Counted from the stretch's first letter, positions 17,701-49,994 are shown. The stretch is 64,000 nt of DNA from Candidatus Xenobia bacterium (GCA_045863235.1 BTUM01000009.1:32001-96000), one strand, 5' to 3'. Program-made: numbers and translations. Notes: generated by a model not told the origin, from the sequence alone.

Positions 17701-18789
17701 CTGCTGGTTGTCCTTGTAAGGTGCGCCGGGGCTGTCGTCCCAGACTCCATCTTTTTCAGCCCAGGTGTGCTGAGCAACGATTCGCGGCACGGCGGCGTCC
17801 AGCCACTTGCGCAGGGCGTCCTGAGCGGCCGGCTCCTGGCGGGCCAGGCGGGCGGCCGCGGCCGGGTGCTCCAACCGCCCCAGCCAGTCGAGGTAGGCCG
17901 GGTGAGTCGCCAGGGGAAGCGCGTCCAGCTCCCTGGCGGCCGCATCGAGCAGCTCGGGCCGGAGCACGACCGGAGCCACCTGCTCGCGCGCCTGGCAAAG
18001 ACGCTTCTCTTTCATGGCCTTGCAGACCGCTTCGGGGTCCTGGCCGACCTGCCAGCTGCCCAGCTCGCGCTCGTGCCAGCTCAGGGGCACCTCGGAGGCG
18101 CGGGCACGGTAGAGCTCCAGGGCGTCGCTGCGGTAGCCTTCCTCCTGCAGCATCCGCAGGCCGCGGGCCAGCTCGGGCTGCTCCAGCGCCTCGGGGCCCA
18201 CCTGACCCAGCAGATAGGCGAGCATGGCGACGTCCTGGCCGCTCTCGAGCGACCTGCCGGCTGAGGTCACGCTGACCCCGGAGGTCAGCCTCAGGTAAGC
18301 CCCCCAGGAGCCCACGGGCTGCCCTTCGTGCTCGAAGACCTGGCCCGAGCGCTCGAGCTGCTCGAGCTGCCGTGCCAGCTCGGGGCTGGGCAGGCGGCTC
18401 ACCTCGCCGGCGTGGAAGGCGGTCAGCACGGCCAGGTCGTCGGGTCCGCGCAGGGGCAGCCAGGCGCCTTCGGGCGCTCGCACCCTGAGATCATCGGGGT
18501 CCTTGTTGAGCAGTGCCTGACCGGCCTGCAGGGGGGTGGAGGGCGTCCAGCCCAGCGAGCCTACCAGGCGCTTGCGCTGGAACTCGAACCCACGGCTCTT
18601 GAGCCCTTCCAGGGCGGCCACCGCTCCGGCCAGTCCACCCAGCGCCCCTTCGCTGGCGCTGGCGCCTGGCAGACCGGGACGCCTGCCGCTCAGCTCGACC
18701 TGGTCGGTCGGGCCGGCAGCCGCTCGCGGCACGATGCCGGACGCGGGCATGAAGGAGGCTCTGAGTGGCTCCACTCGCATGGAGGCCAT
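14710..18789 (-). CDS. Large repeat protein: four jelly-roll (immune inhibitor A/MAM-like) domains separated by helical spacers, with a C-terminal VGGVRVRKR tail
   Basis: Four repeats W.D(S/N)...Y....N..L...DL...LE...D...W...TG...(V/L)RF/W...DSS...G. Start is 18789 or 18780. No Sec signal peptide. Confidence 0.85.
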   Translation of the reverse strand: MASMRVEPLRASFMPASGIVPRAAAGPTDQVELSGRRPGLPGASASEGALGGLAGAVAALEGLKSRGFEFQRKRLVGSLGWTPSTPLQAGQALLNKDPDDLRVRAPEGAWLPLRGPDDLAVLTAFHAGEVSRLPSPELARQLEQLERSGQVFEHEGQPVGSWGAYLRLTSGVSVTSAGRSLESGQDVAMLAYLLGQVGPEALEQPELARGLRMLQEEGYRSDALELYRARASEVPLSWHERELGSWQVGQDPEAVCKAMKEKRLCQAREQVAPVVLRPELLDAAARELDALPLATHPAYLDWLGRLEHPAAAARLARQEPAAQDALRKWLDAAVPRIVAQHTWAEKDGVWDDSPGAPYKDNQQSSLSLPVVDLRHASECTLSFRCQTQLEKGRDWLVVEASADGKSWEALRQITDKSNWTEHQVSLVAYQGAPVHVRFRLSSDSSVTQEGVSLSHISLEGRPRFEAAPRSLFQQDRSQERAALAAEVARLVAGGLPIEPLQQLVAGTGSVAEALRLGPIPPESVERVAHLAERLGNQAAAALAPFPGEVDRMVASFQAAGRLTPTPDDLSSVMAVYRELAQLPPESQEHVARLVQRTCPTWSKEGGWHSIGDGAWADSPGLYRHGQNASLTTSVLDLRHHSAPTVSFRARHDLERNADNVLLEASRDGQQWEGIAAFTGQSDWAEHKLSLAPFGQGMLQLRFRLKTDSSNNGEGLELADFRVEARPTLQPEAPPELVFSDQARSQRATLDQILELARQRDLEGLERVDRLSQDLRPDQALRLFRLQAPAESLSQAAVAVGVEATAALFPEVQSDSVQAFQLATQIANRLQQPELLDRCLADSRALRGTSFPEGLLESLHPWQTEGWVRSEPGVWADNRIGRYRSNANNSLTSPVISLAGQQGARVRFDYQCDLEKNSDFVRLEVRPEGGKWQPLQHYTGQVPQGTDDLDLSDLGEGRVELRWRMTSDSSSEGQGFKLRNLRVEDSTGQIFFSDRPEDLAPLRDELISRMDRPLEPLTELVKAHGLCAALAITTLTDEPERHKELERLVAISGVSRSLQAWEEIGSMPLEALQAEVDLRSECARFRSLGVEPERLLEALREASLDKAGTEALGKLRDGLGQAGWKPSGDWGRTLRGWSDSPAGNYRSNQNAALESPPTWIPPGAKLSFEARYQFEKGPDRVHLQVLPEGKKDWEEKALYTGNGSGRQEVDLSAYGGQTVRLRFLLRTDSSSEYPGLDFWDLKMTDAGGESYCLDELGQRSVDGLLELACTPELQLAERSRALQILSRVPAPLAAPALRALSSFFENQEPERALALVERLPEVVLDSAPEAAMDRLLESLGPRLREESEAVLVGGVRVRKR

Positions 18790-18823
18790 GATGCCCGGGA
18801 GGGCTCAAAGAAGCGTGAAAAGG

Positions 18824-19552
18824 TCAGGCCGGGTCGTCGGGAGACCAGCCCAGCTCGCGGAGCTTGCGTTCGAGCTCCTCTCGCTTGCGCTGCTCGGCTT
18901 CGGCCCGCTCACGCTCGGAGTCGGCCCGCTCACGCTCGCGCAGCGAACGCTCCAGGCCGGTTTCTAGCAACTGCCCTTCGCGATTCGTCCAGCGCAGCCA
19001 CAGCTCTTCAAGTCCATCGAACTCACCCTTCCAGATGGCCAGGCCCAGCCCGATCTCCGGAAAGAAGCGGTCCACCTTGTCCACGTAGCTGGCCCCAGTG
19101 AGCTGGTAGATGCGCAGCTCGCGCTGGCCCAGCAGATGGTCGGGATCGTAGATCACATAGTAGGGAACTCGCATGAAAGCATAGCGCTCGAGCTTGTGCG
19201 TATCCTCCCCGCCGGACCGGTTGGACACGATTTCGATGACCACGTCGGGCGGCTTGCCGAAGACCCAAACGAAGTAGCTGCGCTTGTTCTTCTCGCGAAA
19301 ATTCGGGGGAGCCTCGACGCCGGTGCTGAGCAGCACGTCGGGAACGATGGCCTCCTTGACCTCGTTGAAGATGCCCACGTCGGTGGCGCACAGGAAGGGC
19401 CGGCCCTCCTCCCAGGAAACCCGCAGAGTCTCGCTCAAGAGGTCCTGCTGCTTGTCCTGAAAGAAGTTGTCCACGGGTGTGTCGTCCTCCGTGACCAGGT
19501 GAGAGACGTCTGGCTCCGGGATCTCGTAAAGAGGCGTGACGGGCTCGCTCAT
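18824..19552 (-). CDS. Uma2 (DUF820) family endonuclease-fold protein
   Basis: LVTEDDTPVDN, VPDVLLS, PDVVIEIVS, YYVIYDP, WLRW, and an ERERAE coiled tail. Confidence 0.9.
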   Translation of the reverse strand: MSEPVTPLYEIPEPDVSHLVTEDDTPVDNFFQDKQQDLLSETLRVSWEEGRPFLCATDVGIFNEVKEAIVPDVLLSTGVEAPPNFREKNKRSYFVWVFGKPPDVVIEIVSNRSGGEDTHKLERYAFMRVPYYVIYDPDHLLGQRELRIYQLTGASYVDKVDRFFPEIGLGLAIWKGEFDGLEELWLRWTNREGQLLETGLERSLRERERADSERERAEAEQRKREELERKLRELGWSPDDPA

Positions 19553-19650
19553 GAGCAAGCATTTCTCCTCCGTTGGGAGAAATTCCCGGTCAAGGAATTC
19601 TCAAGGCCCGTCCCAGGTCGATTCAAGCCGTCCAGGCTAGACTTGCGACG

Positions 19651-19764
19651 ATGAGTATTGCAGCCGTTGCCCACCCCCGCACCGAGCGGTCGCAAGGAGA
19701 GGGTCCCATCCCTCAGGCCAGCAAGGCGGTTCCTTCATCGCGCAAGGAGCGAACAGCTCGATGA
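19651..19764 (+). CDS. Possible 37-aa peptide (MSIAAVAHP...)
   Basis: TAGACT 7 nt before the ATG; stop overlaps the next start (ATGA); N-terminus nearly identical to the next gene. Confidence 0.4.
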   Translation: MSIAAVAHPRTERSQGEGPIPQASKAVPSSRKERTAR

Positions 19765-20276
19765 ACATTGCAGCGGTCGCCTCCACCTCCGCCCCCACCC
19801 GGCCGCCCCAGGCCGTGGCCGACCAGCTCGAGAGCCTCGATCTCACTCTGCGCCACAGCATCGAGCGTTACGAAGGCTCGATTCCCGAGCTGGAGACGAC
19901 GGCCAGCCAGGGCCGCCAGCGGGCTGGCCTCTGGCTGGGCGGAGCCGGATTTGCGCTGGCTCTGGGGGCGGCCGGTGGCCCGCTGGGGATGCTGGCCTCG
20001 GGCCTGGTGGTGGTGCCGGCCGCGGCCTTCGGGCTGCTCTCACTGGCCCGCTCCTCGGCGGCCCGCGAGCGGCTCGAGATCGCCCGTGAGGCAAGCCAGA
20101 CCTTCTCCGAGCTGCACGCCCAGGTGGGCAAGCTGCGCCAGGAGGCCGACGAGGTGGTGCGCCGCCACCAGGTGGAGTCTCTGGCGCAGGCCTTCGAGCA
20201 GCAGCAGAAAGCCGTCGAGGAAAGAGAAAGTCACATTCGGATCGGAGGCGTACGCCTCAAACGGAGGGAGCCATGA
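19761..20276 (+). CDS. Hypothetical protein with a Gly/Ala-rich hydrophobic hairpin, coiled coil and C-terminal IRIGGVRLKRR tail
   Basis: AAGGAG RBS; 171 aa; ATGA overlap with the next gene. Confidence 0.8.
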   Translation: MNIAAVASTSAPTRPPQAVADQLESLDLTLRHSIERYEGSIPELETTASQGRQRAGLWLGGAGFALALGAAGGPLGMLASGLVVVPAAAFGLLSLARSSAARERLEIAREASQTFSELHAQVGKLRQEADEVVRRHQVESLAQAFEQQQKAVEERESHIRIGGVRLKRREP

Positions 20277-21301
20277 TCAACTCGATTACACCCCGTGTCG
20301 TCGTTCTGGGCGGCGGCTACGCCGGCGTGGAGCTGGTGGAATCGCTGGAAGACGCCCCGGTGGACGTGGTGCTGGTGGACCAGAAGCCCGAGCACACCAA
20401 GAAGACCAAGCTCTGGAAGATGGCCGTGGGCCGTGAGTCGGACGCCGTCGAGCCGCTCTCCAAGGTGGCCCGCAAGGCGGGCGCTGAGCTGCGCCTGGGC
20501 CAGGTTCAGGCCATTGACACCGAGTCGCGCCAGGTGAAGCTGGAAGGCGGCCCTACCCTGAGCTACGACTACCTGGTGGTGGCTCTGGGCTCGCGTCCCG
20601 CCACCCCGGAAGGGGCCGAGCACGTGCTCACGATCGACCAGCCCGAGGACGCCCAGCGCATTCGCGAGACCGTCCGCGCTCGGGCGCTGGAGGCCATGCA
20701 GACCGGCCAGAACCTGCCCATCGTGGTGGTGGGCGGCGGCGCCACCGGCATCGAGCTAGCCGGGGTGGCCCACGAGGTGGTTCGCCAGGTCAGCCCCCAG
20801 CTACTGGAGCGGCTGGAGCTGACCCTGGTGCACTCGCAGAGCCGCATCCTGAACGGTCAGAGCGACGAGCTCGCGGCCCGAACCACGGCTGCCCTGGCCG
20901 ACCTGGGCGTGCGCCTGCAACTCGGGCAGCGCGTGGCCGCCGTGCGCGAGGGCCAGGTCGAGCTGGCCTCGGGCCAGATCCTGCCCTCGGTCTGCACCCT
21001 CTGGGCCACCGGTACCCGCGCTCCCGAGCTTCTGGCCAGCCTGGGCCCCACCGACCGTGCGGGCCGCCTGGAGGTCAGCAAGCACCTCAACCTGCCCGAG
21101 CACCCCGAGGTCTTCATCATCGGCGACGCCGCCCTGGCGCGCTGCGCCGGCCAGAGCGTGCCGCCCAACAAGCGCGCCGCCAAGCAAGAAGCAGAGCAGA
21201 CCGCCCAGAACCTGCGCAACGCGGTGGCCGGCAAACCACTGGAGCCGTTCTCCTACCGCGACAACAAGGACTGGCACCACATCGGGCCGGTGGAGCTGTG
21301 A
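20273..21301 (+). CDS. NAD(P)/FAD-dependent oxidoreductase (NDH-2/AIF-like, short)
   Basis: VVVLGGGYAG, YDYLVVALGS, VVVGGGATGIELAG, VFIIGD. Confidence 0.88.
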   Translation: MINSITPRVVVLGGGYAGVELVESLEDAPVDVVLVDQKPEHTKKTKLWKMAVGRESDAVEPLSKVARKAGAELRLGQVQAIDTESRQVKLEGGPTLSYDYLVVALGSRPATPEGAEHVLTIDQPEDAQRIRETVRARALEAMQTGQNLPIVVVGGGATGIELAGVAHEVVRQVSPQLLERLELTLVHSQSRILNGQSDELAARTTAALADLGVRLQLGQRVAAVREGQVELASGQILPSVCTLWATGTRAPELLASLGPTDRAGRLEVSKHLNLPEHPEVFIIGDAALARCAGQSVPPNKRAAKQEAEQTAQNLRNAVAGKPLEPFSYRDNKDWHHIGPVEL

Positions 21302-21308
21302 AACGCAA

Positions 21309-21429
21309 GAATCGTCGCTCTGACCCGAAGAACTTACATGGGGTCTTCGATGGCGCCCTGACGGGGTTTGTGGGGCGGCTGGTGGCTGAAATGATCACCG
21401 TTGGATCACCGTTTCCGGGATCGCGTGGT
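21309..21429. repeat. att-like repeat copy 1 (core plus TGATCACC arm repeats)
   Basis: GAATCGTCGCTC..AGAACTTACATGGGG (core 21329-21341); TGATCACCGTTGGATCACC at 21392-21410. Confidence 0.65.
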
Positions 21430-21716
21430 TGACCATTCTAGATTATCGAGCCTTGGCTTGAGCGCCAAGAGAACGGGCCCCCTCTAGCAAGCGAGTTGCC
21501 GGCCAGGGAGGCGCGTACGGGCTCTTGGCCAACTGCGCCAGAGAAACTTTGCGAAACCTGCTGCGCTCTGCGCCTCGGGGAGGCACTCGGCCATGAACTC
21601 ACGTGATAGCTCCGGATGGCCAGTGTAGAGCAGGTCGAGAAGCGTACGATCCCCTAACGCTCGGCGGTCTCCCTCGTAGCTCATACCAGCACCGTATTCA
21701 AGAGTGTCTCCTTCGG

Positions 21717-22310
21717 CTACGGTTGGTTCTGAATGTACTTTAATCCGTGCTCAAAGCTATGGATCAGCTTGCAACCAAGCGCCTGTAACTGCGTCTCCAC
21801 GTTTGGAACCCCGAAGTCCTTGCTGTTCCGGTTGATGTGACAGCTCTGTGCAACCTTATTGTTTTGCAGATCTGTCAGGATACTGGCCAGCACAATGGCG
21901 TCGCCCGGGGAGAGGTAACTCTCGTGGATCCTGGCGTCCTGCAGAGTTCCCAATTCCAGCGGTAAGATGCGCGCCGCTTTGAGCAGCCGATCCCTACTTT
22001 GATCAAACTGAGTTTCCGCGTCCTGGATACTCCTGGTTAGCAAGTCGACAGAATGGTCGAGTGCCCGAAGACCCTCCGAGTATGAATCATTCCTGGCGAG
22101 TTCGGACCGCTGGCGCCTCAGATCCAGTTGTAGGTCTTGCCGCTTGATCTTTAGCCGAACCAAGGTGTTGAAGGGCTCGACCAGAGAAAAAGCTGGAATG
22201 GCCAGTTCTATCGATCGACCCGGGAGTGCCAGAATGTCTTGGCAGGCCTGAGACTGTTCCTGCCCGAGCACAAGTTCCAGCACAAAATTCGTCTCGCAGT
22301 AAACTCTCAC
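21717..22310 (-). CDS. PIN-domain protein
   Basis: RVYCETNFVLEL...DAIVLASI...NRNSKDF. Confidence 0.8.
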   Translation of the reverse strand: MRVYCETNFVLELVLGQEQSQACQDILALPGRSIELAIPAFSLVEPFNTLVRLKIKRQDLQLDLRRQRSELARNDSYSEGLRALDHSVDLLTRSIQDAETQFDQSRDRLLKAARILPLELGTLQDARIHESYLSPGDAIVLASILTDLQNNKVAQSCHINRNSKDFGVPNVETQLQALGCKLIHSFEHGLKYIQNQP

Positions 22311-22741
22311 CGAGATTGGAGAACGCTTCCGCCATGAATGGCCGAAGGAAGTCCCGACTCATGCAATTCGCCTTGTTCCGTGGGCGAGTCGACTAAGTCC
22401 TGAAGCCATTGGCCCACGATGAGCTCATAGGCAAGGGGGTGCACTTCCGAGGGCTTAATTTGCGCGCGCTCGAAGTAGGGAGCAAGAATTGGACTAGCAT
22501 TCACCACAAAGTCCGGCTCGGTCGAACGACTCTCTGGCCTCCAGATGAAAAACTGTTCGGGAGTTGCGAGTAAGAAGTAAGAGCCCTTTACGGCCCACCC
22601 AGACTTCAGCAAATTGTCTCGAAAGCGGCTGGCCCAGGCCGAAGAGGCTCCCTTCAAGCTCTTCGCTTCCACAATCAGAGCCTGGTTTCCCAAGGCATCC
22701 AGGAGGAAAAAATCAAACTTATCGTCTCTGTCGGATCGCAT
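22307..22741 (-). CDS. Hypothetical protein coupled to the PIN gene (PD-(D/E)XK-like motif)
   Basis: FDFFLLD...LIVEAK; GTGA overlap with the PIN gene; TAGAAT upstream. Confidence 0.7.
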   Translation of the reverse strand: MRSDRDDKFDFFLLDALGNQALIVEAKSLKGASSAWASRFRDNLLKSGWAVKGSYFLLATPEQFFIWRPESRSTEPDFVVNASPILAPYFERAQIKPSEVHPLAYELIVGQWLQDLVDSPTEQGELHESGLPSAIHGGSVLQSR

Positions 22742-22862
22742 CTTACTTTGCATTCTACACCCGGACGCTCGTAGAGGGAAGGATTCGGGTGCTTGGCAGC
22801 AATGCTCGGTTTGGCCACAATGTTCCGTTCAGCGCAGTGCATCCCGGCACGCCGACGCGGAC

Positions 22863-22966
22863 GAACGTCGCTCCCACGCAGAGAACCTACGCGGGAACCG
22901 CAGAATTCGGCTCAGTTCTGGTTCCGGGCACTGAGAGGAGGTCACGTTGATCACCGTTTGATCACC
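22863..22966. repeat. att-like repeat copy 2
   Basis: GAACGTCGCTCCCACGCAGAGAACCTACGCGGGA (imperfect inverted repeat TCCCACGCAG/CTACGCGGGA); TGATCACCGTTTGATCACC at 22948-22966. Confidence 0.65.
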
Positions 22967-22969
22967 TAA

Positions 22970-23344
22970 CCTACTGATTGGGTAACGTATGATACGACCA
23001 CCAAATTCGAGCCTGACATGTTCGTCGCGCGGGTGGAGGGGGACTCTATGGAGCCACTCATCCCCAATGGCGCCTACTGCCTCTTCCGTTATATTCGAGA
23101 CATGCCTCGGGAAGGCAGGCCCGCTCTCGTCTGGCACGACGGGCTCAGCGATCCTCACACAGGCGGAAAGTATACCCTCAAGTATTTCACGGTTGAACCC
23201 CCAGTTGCGTGGCGCAAGCCTGGTCGGGTCGTGTTGAAGCCTGCAAACAAGAATTACGAGCCGATTATTCTTCCATTGGAGGGAGAAGGAGTATTCCGTG
23301 TAATTGCAGAGTTTCTGGAAGTCCTGAAGGGCGCAGGCACCTAA
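22970..23344 (+). pseudogene. 5'-truncated S24 (LexA-like) peptidase-domain gene fragment
   Basis: DWV...MFVARVEGDSMEPLIPNGAYCLF...YTLK...LKPANKNYEPI; the frame opens right after the TGATCACC repeat (TAA at 22967); no HTH. Confidence 0.65.
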
Positions 23345-23383
23345 TTAGGCGCACTGGTGACTTAACCATATCAATCCGCGACA

Positions 23384-25672
23384 TCATTCTTGGAACTGCT
23401 CTGCGAGCGCCCAAAAGGCATCAATCCTCACGTCGCCCACGTCCCCCGTCTGGGCCTGAAGGAATCTCTCCTTGTCAACCTGGAACCGCACGAAGTTCTT
23501 GGCTTTCCCGCTGGTTTGTCGATGGACGTCCCGCAATACACCCGAGTCGATGCCAGCCTTAACAACTTCTTCGGCTAGGTCGCCAAAATCTGATTCGAGA
23601 TCTTCGACTGCTACATCAGAGGTTTTATTTGACTGCCGGACGAGCCTTGTAACGCACTTGATGAGCTTTGGCTGTACCTGCCGAACAGTTTCCCGTGCTG
23701 CAACTATGTCCTCAGTAAAATCTGTGGTCGCTCCGCGCGCCTGAATAGCCTCTAGTATCTGTACTGGGTTGAACAGTGTTTCCGTGTTCTGCTCACTTTC
23801 TCCACCTCGCGAATTGTCCAGCACTTCCAGTCGCCTAAATTCACAGTCCAGGAACCGTGATGAAATAACTGTAGATGAATCGACTTTAAAGCCATCGAAG
23901 AGGCACCTGATAAACTCGCATCCAATGAACTGCGTTCCACCAAGGTCTACGTTGACAAACTTGCAGCCGTGAAATGTCACCCTATCATACTTGTTCTTCA
24001 TTAGGCACTCATCAGCGAAGTTCAGGTCATGCAAGGAGATACCGTCCTCGCGCGAGTCATTTAGAAGGCCCGCGCATACTGCAGACGCGTTCGTGGACGC
24101 CGTGTAATCGTGATGGCTTTTGCCGATGGTTGATAAGACCTTAGTTACATTTCTTAGGCTGCCTCCTTCGCGCCGAAAAAACCAAACAGTCCAGTCAGTT
24201 AACTCTGGACTCAACTCGCGTTCGGATAGTAGAATCGAGAGAGAGTCGGTATCTTCGGACATCATTATTACGGCGAGCCGAGCGCCTAAGAAATACGCAA
24301 AAAAACTCTCATGCAGGAATCCAAAGGTAGCTGTAGCCCCCTCCTTTGGGACAAGGGCAGCGTGCGTAGGCACCTTCTCAATAATCTGGGTCTTAACTGC
24401 TGCTTCGAGCTGGAGGTGCATCAATCCGAGTTCTGCGGCTATTCGGAGTTCGTCGGCTGCAAGCCGAAATGCTCCGGATCGCCACATTTCCTCGGCAACT
24501 GCACCTAGCATTGCGATGTGCCCCGCGGTATCAAGTAAGGGCTTTCGCGTCTGGGTCTCTATCCATTTTTCCCATTCCTCTCGTTCGAGCAAAATGCGGA
24601 AAACGTAGTCGCTGCGCTCGAGGTGACTACCGCCAACGTCTATGTTCTTGAATCGTTCCTTCTCAACTACCCAGAGTTTGGCTAGACGTGTGAGGAAGAT
24701 CGGGTGGAAAATCAGTTGCTGGTCATTCTCGAAGGTGTTCAGGAGTTCACGCAGGTCCCGCTCGGCGTCCTCGGACCCCAGCGACTTAAATACCTCGATA
24801 GCCTGGTTGACCTTCCATCCCAAGAGTTGAATGCCGACGGTCGAATACGCGCCACGTTTGGGTTGGAGATGTGTCCTGATACTTGCCGAAACTTGGTAGA
24901 GGTCGAAGAAGCCTTCTCGAGCCGACAAAATCACGGACCCTGCAGTATCCATTTGGTCAACCAGTTCGGTTATTTTGATGAATGCGTCCCGACTGCCCAC
25001 CCGTGCCACCAACTCGTCGAATCCATCGAGCGCCAGGACTATCCAGCCCCATTTCATGCAGGCCACAACCTCCCGTTGCGTCAGAGGAAAGTCGTAGGTG
25101 TTGTTCAATGAGCCTGCTACAGCATCATCAATATTTCCCACATAGCGACCCAACAGGTCGACAGGAATCAAGATTGGAGTTGGATGCTCTTGGGCGCGAT
25201 ACTCATTGGCACACTGAATAGCCAGCCACTCCAGGAGGGCGGTCTTGCCTTGTCCAGCCGGCGCCATTAGTTGGATAAGTTGAGTATTAGCTACTGGAGG
25301 TGCCGCGATAATGCTACGAAGCCTGTTAAGAACACTATCTTCTTCAGTGCCACTTCCTGTTGCATATGCGCGAAAACGGGCATGGCCATCGATAAATTTC
25401 GCCGGGCGCTTCTCCCAGTTTCGCTGAAGAACGCGCGATATCTGTTGCGCCAACCTCGGCAAGCCGAGCACCTCGGACTGGACGTATTGCGTCACAGGAA
25501 CGACTTTCTCACCATCCACCACTCCAAAGCCGATCCCCGCGATCTGTGTCAACTCAAAGAGAGTCTCGCTTCCGTGGCGGAAAAGGCTCACGACGGAGCC
25601 CTCTCGATGGTAGTTTGCCGGGTCGGAGATCAGTTCTTGAAATCTCAGGTCTATATCTTCAATGCGAAGCAC
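23384..25672 (-). CDS. NACHT/STAND NTPase with a pentapeptide-like repeat region
   Basis: APAGQGKT Walker A, VLALDGFDE Walker B, VILSAR, FGFLHESFFAYFLG winged-helix motif, FHGCKF..FIGCEFIRCLF repeats. Confidence 0.88.
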   Translation of the reverse strand: MLRIEDIDLRFQELISDPANYHREGSVVSLFRHGSETLFELTQIAGIGFGVVDGEKVVPVTQYVQSEVLGLPRLAQQISRVLQRNWEKRPAKFIDGHARFRAYATGSGTEEDSVLNRLRSIIAAPPVANTQLIQLMAPAGQGKTALLEWLAIQCANEYRAQEHPTPILIPVDLLGRYVGNIDDAVAGSLNNTYDFPLTQREVVACMKWGWIVLALDGFDELVARVGSRDAFIKITELVDQMDTAGSVILSAREGFFDLYQVSASIRTHLQPKRGAYSTVGIQLLGWKVNQAIEVFKSLGSEDAERDLRELLNTFENDQQLIFHPIFLTRLAKLWVVEKERFKNIDVGGSHLERSDYVFRILLEREEWEKWIETQTRKPLLDTAGHIAMLGAVAEEMWRSGAFRLAADELRIAAELGLMHLQLEAAVKTQIIEKVPTHAALVPKEGATATFGFLHESFFAYFLGARLAVIMMSEDTDSLSILLSERELSPELTDWTVWFFRREGGSLRNVTKVLSTIGKSHHDYTASTNASAVCAGLLNDSREDGISLHDLNFADECLMKNKYDRVTFHGCKFVNVDLGGTQFIGCEFIRCLFDGFKVDSSTVISSRFLDCEFRRLEVLDNSRGGESEQNTETLFNPVQILEAIQARGATTDFTEDIVAARETVRQVQPKLIKCVTRLVRQSNKTSDVAVEDLESDFGDLAEEVVKAGIDSGVLRDVHRQTSGKAKNFVRFQVDKERFLQAQTGDVGDVRIDAFWALAEQFQE

Positions 25673-26375
25673 ACTGGCCTCCTATCGAGGTTATTAGGAC
25701 CCCACGATTCTCAAGTGAAGTGTCGCAGTAATACGTTTTGGTGTGGGACCGAATAACAGACAAATTTGCGCCGTTGTGGATACTGGCGGCCAGCAATGCG
25801 GGTGAAAAGTCTACGTCATCGGAAACTAGGCAGATACACGAATCGGAAGAGGATGAGGCTAACGAAAGGAGGTCAGTTGCGATGTGGACGTCAACCTGCT
25901 TCTGCTCGTTTCTTTCAAAGTAATCGATATATCGATGTGCGCAGCTTGCTTCTGTGCAAGCGCGACTGTTTCCCATCCATCGCTGAACGTCCTTTAACTG
26001 ACAGCGCGCATTCTGGCAGTCGAGTTTACTAGAGGCACGCGGTTTGGAGCGCCTGATGGAGACGGTATGAGTAATGTGAGGGTCGGCGTGCGAGGCAAGG
26101 ATTAGACGGTCGGCAAACTCAAAGTGAACCCGGACCAGGAGACCGTAAGCTTTCAGCAACGCGGGGCACTGTTGTTGATAATAATTGGCCGCCGCATAGC
26201 GGGCCTCCGTGGCGAACTGGTCTCGAAACCAGCCACCATAAGCGCGGAAAACCACGTTAGCTATTCGGCCGCTTCGCGTCAGGAGGGTTTCGCGGCAGCT
26301 GTGCACCCACGATGTGATTACTTCGGCCGGCGGGACGTCCGAGAAATTGTCGTGGTCGACAAGAATATAGTTCAC
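25659..26375 (-). CDS. NYN-domain (PIN-fold) ribonuclease-like protein
   Basis: ILVDHDN, EQKQVDVHIATD, LVSDDVDFSPAL; Cys-rich insert; overlaps the NACHT start. Confidence 0.82.
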   Translation of the reverse strand: MNYILVDHDNFSDVPPAEVITSWVHSCRETLLTRSGRIANVVFRAYGGWFRDQFATEARYAAANYYQQQCPALLKAYGLLVRVHFEFADRLILASHADPHITHTVSIRRSKPRASSKLDCQNARCQLKDVQRWMGNSRACTEASCAHRYIDYFERNEQKQVDVHIATDLLSLASSSSDSCICLVSDDVDFSPALLAASIHNGANLSVIRSHTKTYYCDTSLENRGVLITSIGGQCASH

Positions 26376-26459
26376 ATCAGGTCCTGCGCCACTCGATGCT
26401 CAAGTCCCTTTGAGTCTGAAGCGACCGCCAACAGAGCCACCTCACACCCGACCAGCATT

Positions 26460-26699
26460 TGATCACTTTTTGATCACCGGACTCAAAATCACGCCCGATC
26501 ACCACGCCCTCCCAGAAACACCAAAACTCACCAAAACCAGCGCCACCTCTAATCTCCAGCACACCCAACATAATGCCAGATCACCCAAGATCACGCCCCT
26601 GCTTATCTACCCGGGGAACCTACATGGGGCCTCTTCGATGGCGCCGCCGACTGGGTTTGCGGGGCGGGTGGGGGCACCGTTTCCGAGCCGGCATGGCTG
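26460..26699. repeat. att-like repeat copy 3
   Basis: TGATCACTTTTTGATCACC (26460-26478) and further GATCAC copies; core GGAACCTACATGGGG at 26615 followed by TCTTCGATGGCGCC..GGGTTTG.GGGGCGG..CACCGTTTCCG as in copy 1. Confidence 0.65.
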
Positions 26700-26726
26700 C
26701 GCGATCTGCGGAGCGATCTCGAGACC

Positions 26727-27209
26727 TTACTCTTGTCCGGGGTCCAGGATGGTCAGGTCGGGAAAGTACTTCCCATAATATCCTCGATCACGCGTCACAA
26801 GCTGATCACTTTGCACGCTGGCGTGACCCCCGACCAGAAAATCAGTAATCAGGTGCTGCCTCCAAGGAATTGCCCTCTGACAGGACGAGCACGTAATCCT
26901 CTGGCCATGCCCGCATTGAGGGCAGGCTGGATGATCCGGACGTCGGCGCCGATACTCCCGCCAGGCAAGCCCTGCTCGGCTAAGCCCCTCGCGGGAGGTC
27001 GGAACCACCTGAATGCCGGTATCCATCAGGAACGTGTCCAGGGATCCCTGATTCGGGAAATGCGCCGCAAGCTCGGAATACACAACCTCACCCATGATCA
27101 GGGTGCCGTTGCGAAGGCTATCGTCGAGCGCATTCTGAGAAGCGAGTTGAAAGGGAGAGCCTGGCACCAGAACATCCAAAATTACATTGGTATCTAGCGC
27201 GGAGGTCAT
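26727..27209 (-). CDS. vapC: VapC-like PIN toxin with a zinc-ribbon insert
   Basis: ALDTNVILD, VYSEL, CPQC..CSSC, DFLVGGHA, LVTRD. Confidence 0.88.
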   Translation of the reverse strand: MTSALDTNVILDVLVPGSPFQLASQNALDDSLRNGTLIMGEVVYSELAAHFPNQGSLDTFLMDTGIQVVPTSREGLSRAGLAWREYRRRRPDHPACPQCGHGQRITCSSCQRAIPWRQHLITDFLVGGHASVQSDQLVTRDRGYYGKYFPDLTILDPGQE

Positions 27210-27442
27210 GGGTCCGGTTCGCCTCGGAGTTCGTCCAGAAGGGAATCCGGATCTTGTCCGGCCAGTGCGCGCAAGTAGCCCAGGTAAGGAGCAAACGGCG
27301 AACTCTCAACTCGCTTGCAGACGCGGATGATATGGTCCTCTTCCAGGAACTCAACCTGATCGCCAGGGTGGAGATCAAGTCGCTCCCGAATCTCCTTTGG
27401 GATCGTCACCTGACCCTTGATTGTCATCCGACTTGCGGGCAT
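27206..27442 (-). CDS. vapB: AbrB/MazE-family antitoxin
   Basis: MTIKGQVTIPKEIRERLDLHPGDQVEF; ATGA overlap with the toxin gene. Confidence 0.9.
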   Translation of the reverse strand: MPASRMTIKGQVTIPKEIRERLDLHPGDQVEFLEEDHIIRVCKRVESSPFAPYLGYLRALAGQDPDSLLDELRGEPDP

Positions 27443-27550
27443 CTGGCCTCCAAGTATTACTAGTTGACACTATCGTAATACCTGGTTTCGAAGTTTGTCA
27501 ACGCCGGGCCAAGGGCTTCGAGCGTGCAAGCGCTTCGGCGTCCCCATCAT

Positions 27551-27575
27551 TCCTGCGCGGAGAACCAACATGGAC
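27551..27575. repeat. att-like core copy 4 (right island boundary)
   Basis: TCCTGCGCGG AGAACCAACATGGA; host-like GC content resumes after it. Confidence 0.45.
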
Positions 27576-27638
27576 TGCCCCATTGGCTTTGGCACCGGGG
27601 GCAGGGCGCTCTGGGAACGTCCTCGCTACCGGACTCGG

Positions 27639-28052
27639 TCAGCGCCGCGAGGGCAGAGGGACGTAAATCTCCCGGCACCTGAGGTGCCACAGCTCGACAC
27701 GGCAGAGGTCCACCCGCCGCTGAACCCGCTCCAGGGCCTCCTCCCAGCTCTGGCGCCAGAGGGAGATCCCCAGCGCAGCCGCGGAGCAGCCTGAGATGAC
27801 CCAGAGGGTGACCGGCCACAGGCCAGCCACGCCGGCGGCCAGGGCCAGGAGGCAGGCCATCCTCAGCTGGTCGAGCCAGCGCGAGGCGCGCTGCAGGCGG
27901 GCCTGGAGGCGGGCTTTGCGGCGCTCGAGCACGGCCTCGCTGGCCAGCACCTCGCGGGTGCGCTCGGCCAGGAAACGCAGGTCCGAAGTGGACTCGACCA
28001 GGCCTCCGTTCACGATCCTCAACTCCTCCATCACCCACTCCTCTCTGGTCAT
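27639..28052 (-). CDS. Hypothetical membrane protein (coiled coil plus hydrophobic hairpin)
   Basis: 137 aa ORF; TACTCT 7 nt upstream of the ATG. Confidence 0.65.
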   Translation of the reverse strand: MTREEWVMEELRIVNGGLVESTSDLRFLAERTREVLASEAVLERRKARLQARLQRASRWLDQLRMACLLALAAGVAGLWPVTLWVISGCSAAALGISLWRQSWEEALERVQRRVDLCRVELWHLRCREIYVPLPSRR

Positions 28053-28083
28053 CACGATCAGAGTAAGCTGTCTGGCTTGGAGA

Positions 28084-30216
28084 CTACTGAGAGGATCCTT
28101 GGGAAATCCTTGACTGGGCGGTCAGCTCCTGAAACAGCCGGGTGGTCTCGGCGCTGGGAGCCAGCTGCAGCTCCTCGGCCAGGGCTTCCTGGCAGGCCCA
28201 GTAGAGGCGGGCCACCCGCTCGGGCTGGCCGGCCCGGCCCCAGAGGCGCATCAGCTCCTGATAGGCCCCCTGGTGACAGCGGTCCACCGAGAGAAGCTGC
28301 TCGGCCAGCGAGAGCAGGCGGTCGTCCTTGCCCGCGGCCTCGGCCAGCAAGCCCTCCAGGGCCCGCACGGCCAGTTCGCGCAGGCGGCGGCGGTAGGGGC
28401 GGATCCAGTCTTCCTGGAGGTTCTCCAGCAGATCGCCCCGGTACAGGTCCAGCGCCTGCTGGAGGCGACCGGCCTTGACCTCGCGCTCGAAGTCGAGGAA
28501 GTCGACCCGGTGGGACAGATCGGTGTTGAAGCGGCAACGCCCGCGCCGGTGCTGCACCAGATCCCCTTCGCCCAGGGCCCGGCGGATGTAGGTCAGGGCC
28601 GAGTACAGGTTGGCCTGGGCGCGGTCCCCCTCCAACTCCGACCAGAAGAGATCGGTCAGGCGCTCGTCCGGCACCTCGGTTCCGCCGTGCAGCAGCAGCA
28701 CCAGGAAGAGGGCCCGGCTTTTGGAGGTCTTCCAATCCTGCTCCTTGATCTCGCGGCCCTGAAAGCGGATGCGCAGTGGGCCCAGGCCCTCCACCTCCAG
28801 GGCGGCGGGTGGCTCGGCCGGCGGACAGAGGCGCAGCCGGGCCAGCATCTCGGCGGCCCGGGGCGAGCCGGACGCTCCCAGCACCCGCTGGGTCAGCCAG
28901 CGCTCGCGAGAAAGGGCCCACTCCAGCCCCTCGGCTTTGTCCAACAGCTCCTGGACCGCCGAGGGCGCTTGCTTGGAGCCTGCCAGCTGGTAGCCCCAGG
29001 CCCGCAGCAGGCGCACCCGCACGGCTCCCCGGGCCGCTCCCTCATAAAGCCGGGTGGCCTGCTCCAGGTCGGCCTCGCCCGAAGCGACCTCCCCGACCGC
29101 CAGCCGGGCCGTGCCCAGCAGAGCCAGGATATCAGCCCGGGCCAGCCGCGAGCCCACCCTCTCCAGGGCCAGACGGGCCTGCTCGATGGCTCCCGCGGCA
29201 TCGCCGCAGGCCAGCCTGGCCGTGCCGAGGCAGAGCCGGGCCAGGGCGGACGGGTTGGGGATCGCCTCCAGCGTCTGGCGAGCCAGCTCGGGCTGGCCCG
29301 CGGCCAGGTAGGTCAGGGCAAGCCCCGCGGCCCCGCTGGGAGGCTCCCCGGCCGGGCTCTCCACGGTCCCCCCGCTGAGGGCCTGCTCGAGGCGCTCGCG
29401 CAACTCGGGCGGAGCTTCCAGCATCTGGAGACACTCCTGACGCGACAGTCCCAGGGAGGCGTCGGCGGGGTGGGCCAGGGCGTCGTAGCGAGCCACGGCC
29501 GCCAGGATCGGCTCGGCCTCGGTAAGCTGCAGGGCTCGCTCGGCCAGCTTCAAGGTGGAGCGATGCTCCCATCCCTGACGGTCGGCCGGGTCCTGCGAAA
29601 GCAGCTCTCGGCAACGCTCCAGACCCTGCAGCAAGGTGGCTCCGCCGGCCACGGCCGTGAGCAGGGCGGCCCAGGAGAGCGCCTCCAGCTCCTCGCCCTG
29701 AAGGCCGGAGAGGCTGCCCACCCGGCGGGCCAACTCGCGACGACGCAGAGCCGCCTCGCGTTCGGGGGCCAGGGAAAGCAGGCTCCACTCCCACAGGGCC
29801 AGGCTGTCGCGGTAGCTGCGCTCCTGGCTGGCCCGCCACCAGGCCTGGCGGTCGAGCCACTCCAGGGCGCGCCCCACCGCTTTCAAGAAGGTCTCCTCGT
29901 CGAAGGGCTTGGTGAGGAAGTCGTCGACTTGCAGGCGGAAGGCCTCCACCGGGGTCTCGAAGTCGGCAAAGCCGGTGATCACCACGGCCCGGGTCTCGGG
30001 GGCGGTCTGGCGCATCTGGCGCAGCATGGAGATGCCGCTCATGCCGGGCATGCGCACATCGGTGATGACCAGGTCGAAGGCGCAATCGCTGGCCGCCTCC
30101 AGGGCCCGAGCGGCCGACTCGGCGGCCGTGACCTGGTACCCCTCCTCCTCGAGCAGCAGGCTCAAGCTGCCGCGCAACAGGTCATCATCTTCTACCAGCA
30201 GGATACGTCGGGCCAC
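28084..30216 (-). CDS. Response regulator with TPR-like region and C-terminal SARP/BTAD activator domain
   Basis: ILLVEDD, DLVITDVRMPG, KPF; LGPLRI...LFW...ALDLYRGDLL...LMRLW...LAEELQLAPS. Confidence 0.88.
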   Translation of the reverse strand: MARRILLVEDDDLLRGSLSLLLEEEGYQVTAAESAARALEAASDCAFDLVITDVRMPGMSGISMLRQMRQTAPETRAVVITGFADFETPVEAFRLQVDDFLTKPFDEETFLKAVGRALEWLDRQAWWRASQERSYRDSLALWEWSLLSLAPEREAALRRRELARRVGSLSGLQGEELEALSWAALLTAVAGGATLLQGLERCRELLSQDPADRQGWEHRSTLKLAERALQLTEAEPILAAVARYDALAHPADASLGLSRQECLQMLEAPPELRERLEQALSGGTVESPAGEPPSGAAGLALTYLAAGQPELARQTLEAIPNPSALARLCLGTARLACGDAAGAIEQARLALERVGSRLARADILALLGTARLAVGEVASGEADLEQATRLYEGAARGAVRVRLLRAWGYQLAGSKQAPSAVQELLDKAEGLEWALSRERWLTQRVLGASGSPRAAEMLARLRLCPPAEPPAALEVEGLGPLRIRFQGREIKEQDWKTSKSRALFLVLLLHGGTEVPDERLTDLFWSELEGDRAQANLYSALTYIRRALGEGDLVQHRRGRCRFNTDLSHRVDFLDFEREVKAGRLQQALDLYRGDLLENLQEDWIRPYRRRLRELAVRALEGLLAEAAGKDDRLLSLAEQLLSVDRCHQGAYQELMRLWGRAGQPERVARLYWACQEALAEELQLAPSAETTRLFQELTAQSRISQGSSQ

Positions 30217-49836: not shown

Positions 49837-49994
49837 ACGCAAAGAATACGACTTTAGCCGGACCGCTGCAAGTTGCGGCCCGGCGGCTCTAATGCAACTC
49901 TAACACTTCTCCTAGCATTCTCTAACGGGCCCTCGGCTAACCTGGCACCGATCCCGTTTACGTTTCTTATTTTATTATGGAGGTTGGAGCTCAC

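Follow-up and report, generated by a model that had tools for sequence, protein, structure and literature searches.

Two overlapping genes, which encode an NYN nuclease and a NACHT-type STAND NTPase, form a real unit in the analysed window, i.e. the whole stretch of 64,000 nucleotides from a Candidatus Xenobia bacterium (GCA_045863235.1, BTUM01000009.1:32001-96000). With moderate confidence, we interpret this pair as a self-contained, horizontally mobile two-gene NLR/STAND conflict module, which would probably act against phages by abortive infection or superinfection exclusion. Most likely, it represents an uncatalogued two-gene variant of the NLR-like anti-phage systems, with a separately encoded effector. 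The anti-phage role is argued from analogy and context, and we regard it as somewhat probable.

The pair and all features mapped within it lie on the minus strand. The NYN gene comes first (25659..26375; 238 aa, GTG start, based on the open reading frame and its translation) and overlaps by 14 nt (25659-25672) with the open reading frame of the NTPase gene (23384..25672; 762 aa, GTG start). Both reading frames run exactly between these positions, as an earlier note on this DNA had described. A Shine-Dalgarno sequence, AGGAGG (25678..25683), can be read inside the 3' end of the NYN gene, with a spacing of 5 nt to the GTG of the NTPase gene (25672). The foreign composition claimed in the same note is evident: the GC content is 52.6% in the pair and 54.4% in the island around it (21302-27500), versus 66.2% in the remaining window, and GC3 amounts to 0.57 and 0.59 for the two genes versus 0.89 and 0.90 for two flanking genes. 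The foreign origin of the pair is shown by computation. Contigs from an RNA library span the pair, including a 698-nt contig over the gene junction, and leave the flanks nearly uncovered; they are a weak hint of transcription, with contaminating DNA as another possible source. The RNA runs X9 and X10, from one study with run X1, yielded no contigs here, which does not prove absence.

The coherence of the pair is most apparent when loci are compared. The comparison drew on 36 loci; 33 are family-level, and at least 700 nt of upstream DNA is available for 28 of these 33. A NYN homologue with 29-40% identity is found directly upstream on the same strand in all 28 testable family loci; together with the sister clade described below (4 of 4 loci), this establishes the joint conservation on which the earlier proposal hinged. 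In each of the 21 loci for which the spacing was measured, the genes either overlap or are separated by no more than 27 nt. An all-against-all BLAST of the flanking ORFs of the 28 loci reveals no third conserved gene, sharing being confined to near-duplicate loci, and the flanks of the pair differ in every locus. Furthermore, NTPase and NYN protein diverge together (Mantel r 0.84 for 22 pairs; 0 of 5000 permutations as high); such co-divergence reflects joint inheritance and is not proof of function. That the effector is a separate protein also holds among the relatives searched: no NTPase-effector fusion occurs among 112 NTPase relatives (476-766 aa; search range 419-1334 aa), and none among the best 150 NYN relatives (105-454 aa). 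With the NYN profile, 105 clusters (at 50% identity) are retrieved at E <= 1e-30, and their number rises to 651 at E <= 1e-10.

The NTPase is composed of a small beta domain, NBD, HD1, WHD, HD2, a pentapeptide beta-helix and a winged-helix-like tail, in this order. A Foldseek search with its AF2 model (pLDDT 93.6, pTM 0.87) ranks NLRC4 first (4kxf, E 6e-12) and NOD2 and NLRP3 after it, and a total of 247 chains reach E <= 0.001; in VIA, 371 residues are aligned with NLRC4 (6b5b_B; Z 18.3, rmsd 4.9) over model residues 62-555. The predicted structure contains the NLR-like NBD-HD1-WHD-HD2 fold. The Pfam NACHT model (PF05729) gives the window NTPase 19.9 bits, under the cut-off of 26.7, but is matched at E <= 0.001 by 26 of 30 family members, and some relatives exceed the cut-off (L023 with 28.0 bits, L025 with 27.3 bits). 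Motifs, family matches and fold thus agree on the 762-aa NACHT protein of the earlier note, despite its own sub-cut-off score.

Conservation within the NTPase core is pronounced among 103 sequences. The Walker A motif (P-loop) A-G-Q-G-K-T (residues 139-144; 25241..25258) fits GxxxxGK[ST], with A139, G140, G142 and K143 invariant (103 of 103) and T144 conserved in at least 90%. In the Walker B motif with the NACHT signature, L-A-L-D-G-F-D-E-L (residues 212-220; 25013..25039), no variation is seen at D216, D219 and E220, and conservation is at least 90% at G217 and F218; D-G-F-D-E fits D[GAS]hDE, and the sister-clade member L042 has E at position 219. R252 and H437 are likewise invariant (103 of 103). 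H454 is at least 90% conserved and is also present in the sister clade; either H437 or H454 may be the counterpart of the winged-helix-domain histidine H443 of NLRC4. Strong conservation further marks a family-specific segment of the NBD (residues 172-200; 25073..25159), D-L-L-G-R-Y-V-G-x-I-D-D-A-x-A-G-S-L-N-N, in which D172, L174, G175, R176, D183, A184, A186 and G187 are invariant; G175, R176, D183 and N191 are retained in the sister clade too.

Outside this core, the protein had been described as having a short unrecognised N-terminus and a pentapeptide-like C-terminal region. The first part of this description applies to residues ~1-59 only; from residue ~60 on, the chain can already be aligned with NLRC4. 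No effector domain is recognised and no fold assigned in residues 1-128, for which Atlas feature scores (<= 0.83) are within the range of shuffled proteins and Atlas structure rows have TM < 0.4, the family's own cluster aside. The second part is corroborated by Pfam, family profile and AF2 model, which delimit a pentapeptide-repeat beta-helix of about four coils (residues ~541-620; 23813..24052). The window copy itself scores under the cut-off of 38 for Pfam Pentapeptide_4 (E 8.9e-7, 29.3 bits); the profile of the NTPase family matches McbG-like, QnrB1 and MfpA at E 9e-13 to 3e-10, and the AF2 model displays a strand ladder at residues 545-618. A PDB sequence search with the NTPase returns matches only to pentapeptide proteins, and NCBIfam yields weak pentapeptide-type matches only (HalA, Qnr), far under the cut-offs.

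A C-terminal winged-helix-like module (residues ~664-745; 23438..23683) is delineated by its order of secondary structure, H-H-H-E-E. Atlas structure rows place it near MarR/HTH_34-type regulators at TM 0.42-0.45, below 0.5, and the relationship suggested by the model is a lead only. A winged-helix tail joined to a STAND core is also found in transcription regulators, an observation that counts against a role in defence. Mean identity to the window NTPase is 0.60 in the NBD and 0.24-0.32 in HD2, the pentapeptide region and the C-terminus; in terms of sequence, the switch is conserved and the presumed sensor, which includes the beta-helix, is variable.

The smaller protein had been regarded as a Cys-rich NYN/PIN protein, an assignment with which sequence and fold searches agree. 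It passes the cut-off of Pfam PF01936 (36.2 bits versus 24.2, residues 142-212), and 11 of 27 NYN homologues match this model at E <= 0.001. The top folds for its AF2 model (pLDDT 90.2) are the LabA-like 2qip and the NYN domain of MARF1, 5yaa (Z 10.5, the next row being 7.5), both fitted with rmsd 3.4-3.7 over 140-143 residues; Foldseek results are weak (best E 0.014), and a PDB sequence search gives nothing credible. All 27 homologues share residues D7, N10, D162, D168, D187 and D189, and at least 90% of them share D89; the acidic cluster D7/D89/D162/D168/D187/D189 comprises the putative metal-binding residues. Among the 10 Cys per 238 residues, C120, C125, C140 and C145 are invariant in all 27 homologues. 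These four are also retained in the sister clade and delimit a zinc-ribbon-like insert of the NYN fold, CX4C-X14-CX4C (residues 120-145; 25941..26018), which is modelled with a lower pLDDT (70-87) and which, we infer, binds metal. With Walker A, D-G-F-D-E and the acidic residues of the NYN protein intact in sequence, both enzymes of the pair look active.

Binding between the two proteins is supported by structure prediction. The NYN-NTPase complex scores 0.74 (median of three runs) versus 0.01 for the best of 3 controls; 116 of 157 solved complexes attain this mark, as do 2 of 215 mismatched pairs, a calibration that is rough here owing to our own alignments. At least 95% of the contacts agree between runs, with a partner pLDDT of at least 78. 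In the NTPase, conservation of at least 90% applies to 16 of the 38 residues at the interface and to 110 of 762 overall (hypergeometric p 1.8e-5); in the NYN protein, the interface shows no such enrichment (3 of 31 versus 31 of 238). The interface includes NTPase residues 175-200, and the NBD segment 172-200 is predicted to form half of the docking surface for the NYN protein. The earlier note had pictured an effector activated in trans, which may be wrong: the predicted complex looks like a stably docked pair and not like a free effector.

In PADLOC and in the literature searched, the pair corresponds to no named system, as had been surmised. In PADLOC-DB v2.0.0, Avs models included, 0 families match the window NTPase at E <= 0.1, and 0 families match any of the 4 sister NTPases at E <= 0.01; the NYN protein obtains weak partial matches only, to HEC-09 and to a LabA-like model. 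Our literature search found no description of a NYN + NACHT pair. The catalogue of Lee et al. 2026 (PMC13581612) lists 589 STAND clades and 198 defence-associated clades, and its sensor analysis considered sensors of at least 400 aa. Its main text contains neither NYN nor pentapeptide, and neither these terms nor four accessions occur in 7 supplementary files, in a search that excluded the large clade tables. Avs and related antiviral STAND proteins (PMC13581612) resemble the window NTPase as horizontally mobile STAND NTPases; they recognise conserved phage proteins and, once oligomerised, set off nucleases or other effectors. In Avs proteins, as portrayed there, the effector is fused at the N-terminus and the sensor is large and mostly TPR-like, whereas the effector of the window pair is separate and the post-NACHT part of its NTPase (~290 aa) is made up of a pentapeptide helix plus a winged-helix-like tail.

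The bNACHT proteins described by Kibby et al. (10.1101/2022.07.19.500537), e.g. bNACHT25 with its Mrr-like REase, are similar in their NACHT module with D[GAS]hDE, nuclease effector, conserved NTPase core with variable C-terminal region, and candidate conserved WHD histidine; pentapeptide repeats are among the C-terminal repeat types listed for them. However, they are single polypeptides with an N-terminal effector, whereas the window family, known from sequence alone, has a separate upstream NYN gene in 28 of 28 loci and an NTPase with no recognisable effector domain; the word NYN is absent from the text of that preprint. A STAND/NTPase switch and an effector in neighbouring genes are also characteristic of the NTP-dependent conflict systems of Kaur et al. 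(PMC7159879, PMC8195603), whose parts include pentapeptide repeats and RNases (PIN, HEPN). There, proteins are coupled via shared effector-associated or Death-like adaptor domains; the window effector is a bare NYN fold with a zinc ribbon, too small to accommodate an adaptor, and its predicted docking site lies directly on NBD and WHD.

HEC-09 (Payne et al., 10.1101/2024.01.29.577857), the sole NYN defence candidate found in our literature search, shares the NYN/MARF1-like nuclease fold and a defence-type context, and its HMM gives a weak partial match to the NYN motif of the window protein, with E 1.8e-4 and 19 bits over ~60 residues only. It differs in that the gene stands alone, without NTPase partner, and encodes an N-terminal part resembling a helix-turn-helix; it is reported as a single-gene candidate embedded in Hma systems, with no protection against the phages tested (10.1101/2024.01.29.577857). 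The NYN domains of MARF1 and LabA-like proteins (5yaa, 2qip) are the best structural matches and also have clustered acidic residues, but identity is 12-19%, and the window protein differs by its CX4C-X14-CX4C insert and predicted face for NTPase docking. Similarly, Qnr, MfpA, McbG-like and HalA of Hailong (2xtw, 6zt4, 2xt2, 9nyi) match the family profile at E 9e-13 to 9e-9, a likeness limited to ~75 residues (~four coils); these are stand-alone proteins or a membrane effector, whereas the window helix is a module in an NLR-like protein.

The genomic surroundings bear on alternative explanations. The window pair sits in an array of TA-type cassettes, between a VapC/MazE-type pair (VapBC, 26727-27442) and a PIN pair (21717-22753), as would be expected for a toxin-antitoxin-like addiction module, in which the NTPase curbs a NYN toxin and the cassette is stabilised without phage sensing. 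The tight coupling of the genes and the predicted stable complex fit as well, and in an IMG/VR contig of the sister clade the pair adjoins a SocA/Panacea antitoxin-domain gene, near a T4-like portal. Yet the NTPase, an NLR-like switch of 762 aa whose ATPase motifs are invariant and whose C-terminus is variable, far exceeds what a neutralising antitoxin would require, and the toxin gene would come first and be followed by an 'antitoxin' three times larger; we consider this explanation unlikely. Addiction of this kind is compatible with abortive-infection defence.

Other neighbours are heterogeneous. A truncated S24 peptidase ORF (23018-23344) adjoins the pair in the low-GC island. By raw count, PADLOC matches at E <= 1e-5 are not enriched near the pair (13 of 72 neighbour ORFs versus 7 of 42 elsewhere in the window; the count took in 72 of 88 neighbour ORFs and left out 16), and we do not treat them as statistical support. 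At individual loci, some neighbours are nevertheless strong matches to established defence genes: a full-length GajB lies directly upstream of the pair (L030, E 5e-174), PycTM is among the neighbours (L028), and PDC-S15, S27 and S02 appear among the neighbours across loci. The non-coding region upstream of the pair (26376..26726, minus strand) contains one copy of a dispersed ~68-nt repeat (26609-26674) and the motif GGTGATC-N5-GTGATCA (26460-26478); it may hold a promoter and the cassette border, and no sigma-70-like promoter is called on the minus strand of 26376-26726. An integron cassette array was considered and rejected: the border repeat forms no hairpin, folding worse as single-stranded DNA than shuffles do (z +1.71; 195 of 200 shuffles at least as good), Rfam yields nothing at E <= 1 in 21000-28000, no tRNA is found in 18000-30000, and no integrase gene is seen in the window island.

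The pair is foreign and sporadic in distribution. None of 40 related genomes yields the NTPase, and none of 400 other genomes in a sample of the host's phylum yields a match to the NYN profile; MAGs with relatives are labelled Gemmatimonadetes, Acidobacteriota, Desulfobacula, Lysobacter, Nitrospiraceae and Fibrobacteraceae. Searches of IMG/VR, PLSDB plasmids and INPHARED phages gave no match to the window clade. A sister clade, with an NTPase 24% identical (E 3e-48), contains the same pair in 4 of 4 IMG/VR contigs, and was not found in INPHARED or in complete E. coli genomes. On these contigs, the pair also adjoins an Ogr/Delta activator and integrases, or is located within a block of tail sheath, invertase and tail-fibre-assembly genes. 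Such phage structural and regulatory genes, and the integrases or transposases that flank the pair in L003, L004, L023, L024 and L028, would suit a weapon or competition module of mobile elements, by which prophages and islands exclude rivals or manipulate the host, and which would not strictly be a host defence gene. Mechanistically, this would be the same system with another beneficiary; the window island shows no phage genes, the window clade was not found in IMG/VR, and we find this explanation quite improbable.

A regulatory or housekeeping pair in RNA metabolism is very unlikely. Its STAND protein would be an ATP-dependent transcription regulator (MalT/AfsR-type) and its LabA-like NYN protein a regulatory RNase. 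LabA-type NYN proteins and STAND regulators do exist, and the winged-helix-like C-terminus offers a weak argument; however, the failure to find the family in any of 40 relatives or in any of the 400 further genomes sampled from the phylum, the foreign codon composition, the flanks that vary at every locus, and the sporadic phyletic spread, viral contigs included, all point away from it. An inactive remnant of a transferred cassette in this genome, as the low-GC island with its truncated peptidase ORF and the NYN gene split into two ORFs in sister-clade locus L045 might suggest, is highly improbable in view of two full-length ORFs with all family-invariant residues, a strong RBS and RNA-library contigs covering the pair.

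For the conflict module that we favour, we infer trigger, substrate, direction of regulation and defence phenotype as follows. The 762-aa protein would be sensor and switch: its NACHT module would bind ATP, and its variable C-terminal part (HD2, pentapeptide beta-helix and winged-helix-like tail) would recognise an invader-derived cue. The 238-aa NYN protein would be the effector, a metal-dependent nuclease with a zinc ribbon and, by analogy with other NYN proteins, probably an RNase. Made from the upstream, translationally coupled gene, it would dock non-covalently on a joint surface of the family-specific NBD segment and the winged-helix domain. Activation of NLRs shifts the NBD relative to the winged-helix domain; therefore, once the switch is activated by nucleotide or oligomerises, the nuclease would be set free, re-oriented or clustered, and its cutting of host and/or phage nucleic acid would then bring the infection to a halt.

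The pentapeptide beta-helix fold mimics DNA in Qnr and MfpA. We tentatively propose a more specific model, which is possible though doubtful: gating would be free of adaptors, the NLR nucleotide switch remodelling the NBD-WHD surface that carries the nuclease, and the pentapeptide helix and the winged-helix tail would serve as bait for phage proteins that bind DNA or DNA mimics. If true, adaptor-free gating and bait would amount to a new way of coupling effectors and a new kind of sensor in bacterial NLR-like immunity, and both would be common to a superfamily of several hundred sequence clusters, including prophage-borne copies.

To our knowledge, current descriptions of bacterial NLR-like proteins portray a sensor and its effector fused in a single chain. 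A family with a consistently separate effector would offer a simple system for the question of how an NLR switch signals to a partner that is not covalently attached, a question equally open for the NLRs of animals and plants, in which effectors are recruited. The predicted docking on the NBD/WHD hinge, and not on an adaptor domain, makes this coupling directly testable. Furthermore, the family would add an RNase-type, prophage-carried system to defence catalogues in which it is now missing.

The two overlapping reading frames reported in the earlier note were both found exactly where it had placed them. A 238-aa NYN gene (25659-26375, minus strand) comes first and is followed by the gene of a 762-aa NACHT-type NTPase (23384-25672, minus strand), each beginning with GTG. 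The genes overlap by 14 nt, and because the AGGAGG of the NTPase gene, 5 nt upstream of its start codon, sits within the 3' end of the NYN gene, the sequence suggests that translation of the two is coupled. The foreign composition claimed for the pair is equally evident: its GC content is 52.6%, compared with 54.4% for the low-GC island in which it lies (about 21302-27500) and 66.2% for the rest of the window, and third-codon GC is likewise lower (0.57 and 0.59 vs. 0.89 and 0.90 in the two genes bordering the island). There is also a weak hint that the pair is transcribed. One metatranscriptome-type run holds half of its sampled words, and contigs of this run cover parts of both genes, one of them (698 nt) spanning the junction at 25305-26002; outside the pair, they cover only 22231-22441 of the region 21000-28000. 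The hint is weak because a contig is no proof of a transcript and DNA can be present in RNA libraries.

Apart from the window's own record, a word-indexed search recovered 112 NTPase relatives with lengths of 476-766 aa and identities of 28-47%. Where the source gives a name, it is 'hypothetical protein' in all but two cases, one labelled 'NACHT domain-containing protein' and the other as a pentapeptide (YjbI-type) protein. Thirty-six loci were fetched, 7 from genomes and 29 from metagenomes. Three of them (L006, L007, L037) have nothing closer than a distant NACHT relative (26-27% identity over 130-340 residues) and no NYN gene beside it; setting these aside leaves 33 family loci. In 28 out of the 28 family loci with at least 700 nt of upstream DNA, a NYN homologue lies directly upstream on the same strand, the number of independent loci being somewhat lower (L011 and L024 are near-duplicates, L013 and L031 share a NYN sequence). 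The pair is thus conserved in all testable loci, and its effector is encoded as a separate protein, as had been proposed. Of the remainder, L029, with about 516 nt upstream, shows a partial NYN match, as expected; L012 (350 nt) shows none, and L005, L026 and L033 come without upstream DNA and lie outside the 28-locus count. The two genes overlap or are at most 27 nt apart in 21 of 21 loci measured. No other flanking gene is common to the loci. Since the best 150 NYN relatives from the NYN profile search are all 105-454 aa long, none of these is fused to an NTPase. The pairwise distances of the NYN and NTPase proteins correlate (Mantel r 0.84 for 22 pairs, with 0 of 5000 permutations as high; L016, L021, L031, L032 and L035 were omitted for a truncated NTPase, L028 for the lack of a clean NYN ORF, and L024 as a duplicate). 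Because kinship alone can yield such a correlation, this co-divergence shows no more than that the two were inherited jointly, without exchange of partners.

The 762-aa protein had been read as a NACHT NTPase. This copy scores below the Pfam threshold (19.9 vs. 26.7 bits), but the sequence motifs, the NACHT matches of 26 out of 30 family members (E <= 0.001) and the NLR fold agree with the reading. Walker A is A-G-Q-G-K-T (residues 139-144); the Walker B region, L-A-L-D-G-F-D-E-L (residues 212-220), fits D[GAS]hDE, a signature diagnostic for NACHT (Kibby et al., bioRxiv 10.1101/2022.07.19.500537). G140, G142, K143, D216, D219, E220, R252 and H437 are invariant in all 103 NTPase sequences. H437 and H454 are conserved histidines of the winged-helix domain, a kind of residue that has been substituted in bNACHT25. 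The AlphaFold2 model (pLDDT 93.6, pTM 0.87) is matched by Foldseek to NLRC4, NOD2, NLRP3 and other NLRs (best E 6e-12; 247 chains at E <= 0.001). A second structural alignment places residues 62-555 of the model on NLRC4 in its active-inflammasome form with Z 18.3 (rmsd 4.9, 371 residues), compared with Z 13.4 for autoinhibited NLRC4. The short N-terminus without a recognised fold comprises just residues 1-59, a small beta-rich domain. The C-terminal region had been called pentapeptide-like, which is borne out by the family profile (McbG-like, QnrB1 and MfpA at E 9e-13 to 3e-10; HalA at 9e-9); in the model, a pentapeptide beta-helix of about four coils (about residues 541-620) follows the helical HD2. 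The last part (residues of about 664-745) looks winged-helix-like, although the TM-scores behind this are only 0.42-0.45. Mean identity to the window NTPase is highest in the NBD (0.60) and lowest in HD2, the pentapeptide region and the C-terminus (0.24-0.32), a sequence pattern in keeping with a conserved switch and a diversifying sensor.

The NYN identity of the small protein is well founded, with a Pfam match above threshold (36.2 vs. 24.2 bits) and NYN folds as the best structural matches. Foldseek alone gave weak matches for the AlphaFold2 model (pLDDT 90.2, alignment of 27 homologues). Among 48,161 solved chains searched, the top matches were 2qip (LabA-like NYN) and 5yaa (MARF1 NYN domain), each with Z 10.5, rmsd 3.4-3.7 and 140-143 aligned residues; the next row has Z 7.5. 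Invariant residues across the 27 homologues include D7, N10, R44, G47, W49, R59, D162, D168, D187 and D189, as well as four cysteines, C120, C125, C140 and C145 (CX4C-X14-CX4C). On the basis of the Pfam score, the fold, the invariant residues and the four cysteines, we therefore interpret the protein as a presumably active metal-dependent nuclease with a zinc-ribbon insert, its activity and substrate being inferred.

Prediction of the complex, which the earlier note had named as a check, supports binding of the NYN protein to the NTPase. The median score of three runs is 0.74, compared with 0.01 for the best of three controls, a mark that 116 of 157 solved complexes and 2 of 215 mismatched pairs attained. 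These calibration counts apply only roughly, because the prediction for the pair was run on alignments made for this analysis. Contacts agree by at least 95% between runs, and partner pLDDT is at least 78. The predicted contacts involve residues 40 and 51-97 of the NYN protein, among them the conserved acidic residue D89, and residues 16-17, 175-200, 225-240, 395-415 and 446-447 of the NTPase. On the NTPase, the predicted docking surface consists of a nearly invariant, family-specific NBD segment (D-L-L-G-R-Y-V-G-x-I-D-D-A-x-A-G-S-L-N-N) and helices of the winged-helix domain (WHD). Conservation is enriched on this side of the interface, where 16 of 38 residues are at least 90% conserved vs. 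110 of 762 overall (p 1.8e-5); there is no such enrichment on the NYN side (3 of 31 vs. 31 of 238). The NBD and WHD of NLRs shift relative to each other upon activation, and a NYN partner bound across both should therefore feel the nucleotide switch. Firing of the switch would then release, turn or cluster the NYN protein.

The distribution of the pair is patchy. The NTPase was not found in any of 40 related genomes, and among 401 genomes sampled from the phylum, the NYN profile was found solely in the window's own genome. Elsewhere, relatives occur in MAGs that bear the labels Gemmatimonadetes, Acidobacteriota, Desulfobacula, Lysobacter, Nitrospiraceae and Fibrobacteraceae. When the NYN alignment was used as a profile in an exhaustive search, 105 clusters were recovered at E <= 1e-30, 651 at E <= 1e-10 and 1122 at E <= 0.001; scores drop in a step near 1e-30, and the proteins below it, a sister clade, keep the same motifs, including the four cysteines. 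A search of IMG/VR with this sister clade returned four loci, and in all four a 752-756-aa ORF directly follows the NYN gene. Its product shares 24% identity with the window NTPase across 609 residues (E 3e-48), has a pentapeptide match, and keeps the Walker A and B residues along with G175, R176, D183, N191, R252, H437 and H454. One sister pair (L043) adjoins an Ogr/Delta-type activator gene and phage integrases, another (L045) lies between tail-fibre assembly genes beside a resolvase/invertase and a tail sheath gene, and a third (L042) has a T4-like portal gene and a gene with a SocA/Panacea domain in its vicinity. Given four out of four sister pairs and their phage surroundings, the superfamily of pairs is wider than the window clade and is in part carried on temperate-phage-like elements, like many defence systems. 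The window clade itself was not found in IMG/VR, PLSDB or INPHARED, nor the sister clade in INPHARED or complete E. coli genomes. In the prophage-like locus L045, the NTPase gene is intact and two ORFs of 91 and 153 aa stand in place of a single NYN gene (4989-5701), whether through a frameshift, through decay or through an error of sequencing.

In the island, cassettes are arrayed on the same strand, the NYN-NACHT pair among them. A VapBC-like pair (26727-27442, minus strand) combines a 78-aa antitoxin of the MazE/AbrB type with a 160-aa PIN toxin, which may have a zinc-ribbon insert (DZR, E 0.012). Another pair of overlapping genes (21717-22753, minus strand), which may be a further TA or defence-type cassette, encodes a 148-aa protein with no match in Pfam, NCBIfam or PADLOC and a 197-aa PIN protein (PF01850, 24.2 bits; PIN_12, E 3.4e-4). 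Convergent with the NTPase gene is a truncated S24 peptidase ORF (23018-23344, plus strand; 108 aa), probably a remnant, which retains only the C-terminal part of this LexA/UmuD-type domain (profile positions 36-105 of 116). An S24 domain also occurs near the pair in locus L022, there fused to a type I restriction R-subunit fragment. Two Uma2-family genes, putatively restriction-endonuclease-like, match the PADLOC candidate PDC-S03 (18824-19558, just outside the island, and 49261-49842; both minus strand).

At least one PADLOC match is present among the neighbours in 7 of the 15 further loci whose flanks are long. In L030, the same strand carries a full-length GajB (322-2241; Gabija helicase, E 5e-174) immediately upstream of the pair, and a Pycsar-type PycTM effector is a neighbour in L028; further matches are PDC-S15, PDC-S27 and PDC-S02. 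The L030 contig stops where GajA would be expected. The scan covered 72 of the 88 neighbour ORFs; the 16 omitted had obvious Pfam matches to housekeeping genes, transposases or integrases. Because 7 of 42 ORFs in the rest of the window match likewise, mostly generic ATPase or Uma2 models, the 13 matches among the 72 neighbours (E <= 1e-5) reveal no defence enrichment and provide no statistical support. Integrases or transposases flank the pair in five loci (L003, L004, L023, L024, L028).

A dispersed repeat of about 68 nt marks cassette borders in the window (21323-21386, 22866-22895, 26609-26674). It has 11 matches in the genome, with copies also on contigs C18, C14, C13, C60, C21, C78 and C53, the longer matches having 84-100% identity; two copies are at or near contig ends, and others adjoin lower-GC accessory genes (an AAA_14/DUF4143 ATPase, a phage-type integrase). 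It neither matches Rfam nor folds into a hairpin. At cassette borders or upstream regions, a second motif recurs on the minus strand, GGTGATC-N5-GTGATCA, with two GTGATC words 11 nt apart (21392-21410, 22948-22966, 26460-26478; weaker at 26579-26594). This motif may serve as an operator or as a site of recombination; the window has 46 GTGATC words vs. 29.2 expected, a count reached by 0 of 100 shuffles. A 2931-nt contig from a DNA run of another sludge-type sample tracks the window to 22970, then matches only 21 nt at 26608 and diverges. It may represent a relative with different cassette content past the border repeat, consistent with cassette exchange at repeats, a weak reading because the joint is short and inside the repeat.

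The earlier note did not recognise the arrangement as a named system, and it was not found catalogued in PADLOC-DB v2, NCBIfam or the literature searched. PADLOC-DB v2 contains no model matching the NTPase; the NYN protein has weak partial matches there to a LabA-like model and to HEC-09 (E 1.8e-4), a single-gene NYN candidate that failed to protect against the phages it was tested with (Payne et al., bioRxiv 10.1101/2024.01.29.577857). NCBIfam names neither protein, and full-text searches of the literature, bioRxiv supplements aside, yielded no description of a NYN-NACHT pair. Effectors on separate polypeptides, coupled through adaptor domains, have been described (Kaur et al. 2020, PMC7159879; 2021, PMC8195603); in the available passages, NYN is missing from the former and appears in the latter for animal proteins only. 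The available part of Rousset et al. 2022 names prophage hotspots with NLR proteins fused to TIR, SIR2 or a nuclease and does not mention NYN. Neither NYN nor pentapeptide is present in the main text of a catalogue of 589 STAND clades (Lee et al. 2026, PMC13581612), and four family accessions are absent from seven of its supplementary files. These seven do not include the clade tables, in which the NTPase may well figure as a NACHT clade.

Together, the two genes form a genuine module that is conserved and mobile, built from parts of familiar kinds, namely an NLR-like NACHT switch, a NYN nuclease and a pentapeptide repeat. What is new is the arrangement, with an always separate effector that lacks an adaptor domain and whose predicted docking site is on the NBD and WHD of the switch. 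We are confident that the two proteins work together, and we lean towards anti-phage defence as their function.
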